Shown here piece after piece: positions 6,759 to 6,906 of a DNA stretch of 64,000 nt; position 1 is the first letter of the stretch; each line of letters opens with the position of its first letter. The position numbers and the translations under genes are program-made. Below the pieces are notes generated by a model that saw only the letters and a program-made list of their open reading frames with translations, made no database searches and was not told the DNA's origin. The stretch comes from a virus (taxonomy: Duplodnaviria > Caudoviricetes): positions 32,001 to 96,000 of IMG/VR virus record IMGVR_UViG_2706796498_000001. The stretch is one strand, 5' to 3'.

Positions 6759-6786
6759 TTGACAGAGGGTAATAGTATGTTATAAT
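6759..6786 (+). promoter_or_regulatory. Strong sigma-A-type promoter
   Basis: TTGACA-16 nt-TATAAT with an extended TG. Confidence 0.8.
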
Positions 6787-6791
6787 AAAGA

Positions 6792-6862
6792 CAGTTAATA
6801 CTATCCTCCTTCAAATAGTTTTCCATGTTAAAGTCTAGGTGTAACAGCCTAGGCTTTTGTTT
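6792..6862 (+). ncRNA. Candidate ~70-nt small RNA with anti-SD loop
   Basis: Lies between a consensus promoter and an intrinsic terminator (6830-6864); hairpin ACTAT/ATAGT displays CCTCCTTCAA; no ORF. Confidence 0.6.
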
Positions 6863-6906
6863 TTGATATATTATTATTAGAACAAGTACAGAAAAGGGGT
6901 TTATAA

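Follow-up and report, generated by a model that had tools for sequence, protein, structure and literature searches.

A candidate small-RNA gene with a predicted accessible anti-Shine-Dalgarno motif between the endolysin and terminase genes of a Limosilactobacillus-type phage

Related small RNAs and the phage locus

The enterobacterial RNAs DapZ and MicL are 3'-UTR small RNAs that are transcribed from promoters of their own and use the terminator of the mRNA. In the Firmicutes, RNAIII and RsaE/RoxS are small RNAs with C-rich seeds, and the Lactobacillales, to our knowledge, possess no Hfq. LhrC is likewise a C-rich sRNA, with UCCC motifs (cited in PMC12282133). The 6S RNA of lambda and StxS of the Stx phages are transcripts from PR' that end at tR' (PMC12197685, citing Sy et al. 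2020), and StxS, with a length of 74 nt, acts in trans (PMC12197685). The c4 antisense RNA of phages P1 and P7 is a small RNA proposed to block ribosome-binding sites (RBSs) via short complementary stretches (PMC12197685). In the literature that we found, little attention has been given to regulatory RNAs of phages that are strictly lytic and infect Gram-positive bacteria. A 2025 review does not use the term Gram-positive, and the only Gram-positive example retrieved from it by a term search is the prophage-encoded SprY (PMC12197685). What transcriptome papers on Herelleviridae describe are long non-coding RNAs or abundant transcripts left unresolved, not defined small regulators (PMC7698491, PMC12282133).

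The DNA analyzed here, referred to as the window, is a stretch of 64,000 nt that corresponds to bases 32001-96000 of the virus record IMGVR_UViG_2706796498_000001, which is 106,071 bp long and has terminal repeats; positions are those of the window unless the genome is named. The record represents an uncultured, 106-kb lytic phage of the Limosilactobacillus type that belongs to a distant Herelleviridae-like lineage. The large terminase displays 51% identity to that of Lactobacillus phage Bacchae, other Herelleviridae being more remote, and phages in GenBank have the lysin alone in common with it. The closest cellular relatives of the endolysin are Limosilactobacillus prophage lysins (57-68% identity), and the host is, therefore, probably a Limosilactobacillus.

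All genes around the locus, which we call U1, are carried by the plus strand. The holin gene (4754-5197) is separated by a terminator from the LysM endolysin gene (5286-6755; PHROG endolysin phrog_291, E 5e-142). Downstream, a late operon begins with ORF6907 (6907-7578), whose homologue in LP65 has been annotated as a structural protein; next come the genes of the small and large terminase subunits (starts at 8856 and 9270), the portal (start at 11108) and the major head protein (start at 12909), with a second element, U2, between the latter two. The C-terminal tail of ORF6907 consists of Ser/Ala/Pro/Gln-rich repeats (SQAPASASTS units) and varies in length among relatives; the tail of ORF7973 (7973-8524) resembles it.

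U1 is a credible, unannotated small-RNA gene with a motif predicted to be an accessible anti-Shine-Dalgarno (anti-SD) sequence. It shares with DapZ and MicL a promoter at the end of a coding gene, a 3' end at the intrinsic terminator of that gene and a seed in the 5' part of the short form. Unlike these RNAs, it is found in a lytic phage of a Gram-positive host, its promoter is located just past the stop codon and not inside the gene, and the promoter sequence itself would mask the seed in the long isoform. Lambda 6S RNA and StxS are similar to U1 in being short (about 70-190 nt) and in combining a strong promoter with a terminator just ahead of late genes; in those phages, however, the late operon is read from the same promoter once Q antitermination has set in, whereas a separate late-type promoter is found past the terminator of U1. 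The c4 RNA has defined targets beside its own gene and pairing stretches that are probably in loops, whereas U1 displays a generic anti-SD core without a stable loop. With RNAIII, RsaE/RoxS and LhrC, whose action is Hfq-independent, U1 has in common a C-rich motif complementary to G-rich SD sequences. The motifs of those RNAs are usually placed in stable hairpin loops and are often repeated, whereas U1 contains a single, unstructured CCUCCUU and has no homology to them (no Rfam match).

Promoters, terminator and the predicted U1 RNA

The promoter of U1, P1, spans residues 6759-6786 of the plus strand. It comprises the -35 hexamer TTGACA (6759-6764), located 3 nt downstream of the endolysin stop codon, a 16-nt spacer that ends in TGT and carries the extended TG (6778-6779), and the -10 hexamer TATAAT (6781-6786). 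The consensus promoter with extended TG that had been read from the sequence originally is thereby confirmed, and it is the sole 12/12 promoter match in the whole genome, for which base composition gives a chance expectation of 0.19 such sites, or 0.011 when the TG is included. Weaker promoter-like sites occur at approximately the chance rate in a local scan of 5500-8500 (5 observed, 6.0 expected).

The design of P1, TTGACA-16/17-TGnTAT(A/T)AT, is common to ~15 promoters that precede clusters of small genes in early-looking regions, which makes it plausible that P1 belongs to the early class. The early timing that had been proposed for the RNA is supported to this extent, as a plausible assignment from promoter design. 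Early promoters have an A-tract and GTG immediately 5' of the -35 hexamer and a conserved leader (AUAGUUGUCGAAAGGAUAAGA...AAAGGA), with examples at genome positions 2096, 2455, 12713, 21461, 26125 and 26850 on the minus strand and 102221-104463 on the plus strand. The P1 promoter is devoid of the A-tract seen in early promoters, and its extended -10 element (TGTTATAATA) is one base away from the late motif described below.

The intrinsic terminator (6830-6865) is formed by an 11-pair stem (6830-6840/6847-6857) with the 6-nt loop GTAACA and the U-tract UUUUGUUUUUG. The stem has a stability of ~-14 kcal/mol and is followed by TTTTGTTTTTG, with 9 U residues in the 11 bases past its G+C core; it terminates on the plus strand only, as no T-run follows the hairpin on the minus strand. 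The distance between the end of the -10 hexamer and the stem is 43 nt, in agreement with the ~45 nt of the original prediction, and the terminator (6830-6857) is common to the endolysin gene and U1. From the positions of promoter and terminator, the U1 RNA is predicted to start at A6793 or G6794 and to end near 6865, with a length of ~70-73 nt. The unit contains no ORF longer than 12 codons, the longest (12 codons) has no SD, and no ORF of at least 25 codons overlaps the unit 5' of the terminator. An Rfam search with U1 retrieved no family; the best match, AfaR, lies on the opposite strand and scores 22 bits (E 0.13), the cut-off being 100. U1 is thus probably the gene of a non-coding RNA of ~70 nt.

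A putative late promoter, TGATATATTA, occupies residues 6864-6873, directly past the terminator and ahead of the ORF6907 operon. RNA-seq of Kayvirus has established that late promoters have a long -10 box, TGTTATATTA, with a TT extension and no -35 element, and that the initiating purine, enriched in G, lies ~6 bp downstream (PMC7698491); the consensus is also given in a review (PMC10383478). Kayvirus promoters of this type, without a -35, drive morphogenesis genes (PMC7698491). The element at 6864 matches this Kayvirus-derived consensus in 9 of 10 positions and is predicted to be active: TT comes next, G6880 is situated ~6-7 nt downstream, and there is no -35 element, its position falling within the terminator stem.

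The core of this motif, TATATTA, is present in 35 copies in the genome, 16 of which are intergenic, in the sense orientation and no more than 120 nt ahead of a gene, even though only 7% of the genome is intergenic. Perfect TGTTATATTA sites precede the major head gene (12844-12853, 10/10, 3' of U2) and a gene at 2380. Judged from these matches, the late-promoter motif of Kayvirus is also present in this distant Herelleviridae-like lineage. Late-type motifs with the TATATTA core are located at 2355, 4665, 6864, 12844, 14466, 24619, 29200, 62855 and other positions of the window. In other plus-strand units, a terminator followed by a late-type -10 box is the usual layout, and the box typically abuts the preceding U-tract. 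The terminator at 6830 and the promoter at 6864 thus mark the usual kind of border between the lysin unit and the late unit that comes next, and the extra element consists of P1 and 37 nt, which separate the 6830 terminator from the lysin stop codon. P1 is not the sole promoter candidate of the downstream late operon, since the late-type -10 box lies between the terminator and the operon. Transcription of the ORF6907 operon from P1, an outcome that the original prediction had set against its own case, is made unlikely by the separate putative promoter at 6864-6873.

Folding of the short and read-through RNAs

The anti-SD heptamer CCUCCUU is located at residues 6805-6811 of the plus strand and is, as originally noted, exactly complementary to AAGGAGG. 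The same seven nucleotides occur in the host-type 16S 3' tail, GGAUCACCUCCUUUCU, taken from Limosilactobacillus genomes. Behind the minus-strand AAGGAGG lies ATAGTATTAACTGTC, with no ATG, GTG or TTG at a usable distance, and no minus-strand ORF of at least 25 amino acids starts there, in accordance with the earlier view that AAGGAGG does not serve as an RBS there.

The heptamer is flanked by the pentamers ACUAU and AUAGU (6800-6804/6815-6819), which had been supposed to form a stem that displays the anti-SD as a loop. The folding calculations do not bear this out, the pairing being thermodynamically negligible. The 37-nt 5' part of U1 folds with only -0.4 kcal/mol (z +0.19), and 77 of 200 shuffled sequences reach or surpass this stability. 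When the complete 74-nt RNA is folded, the ACUAU/AUAGU hairpin is part of a minimum free energy structure with an ensemble frequency of 6.6%, and the centroid structure retains only three of its pairs. The first ~37 nt of U1 are, therefore, predicted to be unstructured, and the anti-SD would be accessible because the 5' region is unfolded, not through presentation by a stem.

A different picture is obtained for RNA that reads through from the endolysin gene. In this transcript, a hairpin is predicted at 6754-6820, in which the -35 hexamer and the spacer of P1 (6754-6771) pair with residues 6802-6820 and bury most of the anti-SD. The hairpin has a folding energy of -15.8 kcal/mol (z -2.37), which 4 of 200 shuffled sequences equal, a moderate significance; the fold that includes the terminator has a z-score of -3.25. 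The arms of the hairpin were also detected as inverted repeats (I3 and I4). The short U1 RNA starts past the 5' arm and, therefore, cannot form the masking stem. If the stem is real, the anti-SD seed would be exposed only in the P1-derived isoform. Because the -35 hexamer is fixed by promoter function, the pairing is more likely to have evolved around the promoter than the reverse. The fold of the read-through leader contains no alternative structure that competes with the terminator, and no cis-repression of the SD of ORF6907 is seen in it.

Targets, sibling units and competing readings

The -25 to +10 regions of 134 crudely called phage ORFs were scanned for pairing with U1 under restricted pairing, with controls in which CCUCCUU was kept and the flanks were shuffled. 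The pairing energies of U1 with these phage RBSs are no better than those of the controls, 75% of which have a best hit at least as good as that of U1, and ungapped scans for complements of U1 gave chance-level matches only. Unrestricted RNAduplex energies were discarded as inflated by large loops. The top phage candidate, the RBS of a gp67-like gene at 50900 (9 bp, a 2-nt bulge and 4 bp), was rejected because it does not rise above the controls. Among 74 Limosilactobacillus genomes, a 24-nt complement with up to three mismatches occurs in two, compared with one match of the reversed control. In Limosilactobacillus caecicola, the RBS region of a gene (C5:93671-93694, minus strand) matches 21 of the 24 positions of the complement of the U1 5' part, which may be due to chance; the gene lies ~1.5 kb from a lysin homologue, presumably in a prophage.

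The target results provide no link between U1 and defence genes, which the original prediction had named as an example. AAGGAGG lies ahead of 5.7% of the genes in the phage and 4.4% of those in a host proxy, and with usage this similar an RNA acting as a generic anti-SD would hit phage mRNAs as well; a generic decoy that leaves phage mRNAs untouched was, therefore, rejected. Since no specific phage or host complement was found, the case for a silencing mechanism is made solely by the motif and its accessibility, and pairing over seven bases alone is weak.

The gp67-like gene itself (50900-51514) encodes a homologue of gp67 of phage G1, which binds region 4 of sigma-A; both Pfam domains score above the cut-off and the PHROG assignment is anti-sigma factor. 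A search of the phage for a sigma-70 region-2 domain was negative, although related Lactobacillus Herelleviridae have an annotated sigma factor. Lacking an A-tract upstream element and equipped with an extended -10, P1 might escape a gp67-like anti-sigma factor and stay on throughout infection.

Relatives of the ORF6907 protein with 83-99% identity are present in ENA and Logan assemblies. Searches for the U1 locus in their DNA, by exact 20-mers and by protein-guided scans of viral and genome contigs (ORF6907, TerL and an ORF6907 alignment), returned nothing usable; the sole metagenome match begins at residue 8 of ORF6907 and thus does not include the U1 element. In phages LpeD, 3-521 and LP65, the ORF6907 homologue is located after recA and a sigma-factor gene, so that no comparable site exists there. 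A 7-kb contig with a lysin gene was dismissed as a relative, being a prophage lysin that adjoins an apparent toxin-antitoxin pair, as read from its sequence. A degenerate pattern of promoter plus AUCCUCC retrieved 15 unrelated contigs from IMG/VR and no U1 homologue. One unrelated viral contig (IMGVR_UViG_3300037455_000800, ~875-1010) carries a consensus promoter, AUCCUCC a few bases past the start and a strong terminator ~80 nt on.

With a single set of criteria, exactly four ORF-less promoter-terminator mini-units were identified in the genome, designated U1 to U4; applied to phage Bacchae (141 kb), the same criteria yielded nothing convincing. The promoters of U1 to U4 all follow the early design TTGACA-16/17-TGnTAT(A/T)AT. 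U2 (12670-12802, plus strand), between the portal and major head genes, has an early-type promoter, a predicted RNA of ~100 nt and a terminator; its promoter region itself forms a hairpin in read-through RNA, and its CU-rich RNA mirrors the purine-rich leaders of early genes, not the SD core. U3 (genome 21803-21690; ~82 nt, starting ...GGUUAAUCCUCCG, with AUCCUCC near the 5' end) and U4 (genome 21668-21480; ~145 nt, with CCCCUU in a small 5-bp hairpin) are arranged in tandem on the minus strand, outside the window (at about -10197 to -10520 in window coordinates), and have early-type promoters and similar terminators. CCUCC occurs near the 5' end of two of the four RNA bodies (U1 and U3), against 0.07 expected in 261 nt (post hoc P ~0.002). 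The RNA bodies display no significant homology to each other, neither in an alignment of U1 with U3 nor by a 12-mer common to U1 and U4. The CCCCUU of U4 is the exact complement of AGGGG- and GGGGG-type SDs, which are used by 15-16% and 10-12.5% of the phage genes, compared with 5.7% and 0.9% in the Limosilactobacillus proxy host. Together with the late-type promoter past the terminator, the three siblings lend in silico support to the stand-alone RNA unit that had been proposed.

We tentatively propose, at somewhat short of an even chance for the reading as a whole, that U1, situated in the 3' untranslated stretch behind the endolysin gene, is a stand-alone gene whose product is a non-coding RNA of ~70 nt, that this RNA pairs with AAGGAGG-type SDs and is masked in the read-through RNA, and that the downstream operon is served by its own late promoter. 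The sigma-A RNA polymerase of the host would start at P1 and stop ~70 nt on at the strong intrinsic terminator. The unstructured CCUCCUU stretch would then most likely act by pairing with AAGGAGG-type SD regions, lowering translation initiation. In the tail of the late lysin mRNA, the -35 element and spacer of P1 would fold onto the anti-SD, leaving only the short P1-derived isoform active. The packaging and structural operon would be transcribed from the late-type promoter past the terminator, the activity of which is anticipated from its motif.

Other arrangements of the same elements were considered. The 6754-6820 hairpin and the terminator could form a double-hairpin 3' end that stabilizes the late lysin message, in which CCUCC is a mere partner of GAGGG in the stem, and P1 gives a short by-product, or holds polymerase or insulates the neighbouring units. 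The read-through fold (-15.8 kcal/mol, z -2.4, or z -3.25 with the terminator), the lack of structure upstream of the terminator in the short RNA and the failure to find a specific target among the phage RBSs or in the 74 Limosilactobacillus genomes are all in line with this reading, which nonetheless appears unlikely: it leaves unexplained a perfect consensus promoter with extended -10 and three ORF-less siblings, two of them with C-rich motifs of the anti-SD type, and the pairing is likelier to have evolved around a -35 element fixed by promoter function. A conditional leader like that of lambda PR'-tR' (6S RNA, StxS) would make P1 the real promoter of the ORF6907-terminase-portal operon; the terminator would stop P1 transcription early, a phage antiterminator would override it later, and the short RNA would be the terminated leader, with or without a function in trans. 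We regard this as quite unlikely given that a late-type -10 motif lies past the terminator at both operons concerned (9/10 at 6864 and 10/10 at 12844), that morphogenesis genes of Kayvirus are transcribed from such promoters, which lack a -35 (PMC7698491), and that the read-through leader has no alternative fold competing with the terminator. In favor of this reading, the late operon is immediately preceded by a strong promoter of the constitutive type and a terminator, the same layout is found ahead of the major head gene, and StxS shows that terminated leaders can act in trans (PMC12197685).

U1 might also act without specific base-pairing targets, either by mimicking the 16S 3' tail in abundance or as a decoy or sponge that captures a protein or RNA, such as a host nuclease, an RNA-binding protein or a further sRNA of phage or host origin. 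Its heptamer is identical to the 16S tail and lies in an unstructured context behind a very strong promoter, and no gene-specific complementarity was found; however, no result points to a partner, and phage mRNAs would be hit as often as host mRNAs, so that such a role seems improbable. That promoter-like and terminator-like sequences are juxtaposed by chance and have no function is highly improbable. The weaker promoter-like sites do occur at about the chance rate (5 versus 6.0 expected in 5500-8500), but only 0.011 sites with 12/12 matches and TG are expected per genome, and P1 lies within the 7% of intergenic DNA, directly ahead of a terminator, as one of four like units. Beyond the stand-alone gene that we favor, a broader and more speculative reading, which we hold to be doubtful, sees in the four units of one promoter design, three of which have anti-RBS motifs, an early mini-RNA programme that times translation, with the P1 DNA doubling as an anti-anti-SD and P1 possibly escaping the gp67-like anti-sigma factor.

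For annotation, the gap between the lysin gene and the terminase operon is not empty. If U1 is expressed, it would provide an example of isoform-specific seed masking by a promoter sequence. If U1 and its three siblings are expressed, they would constitute a compact system for the Hfq-independent control of translation by phage RNA.
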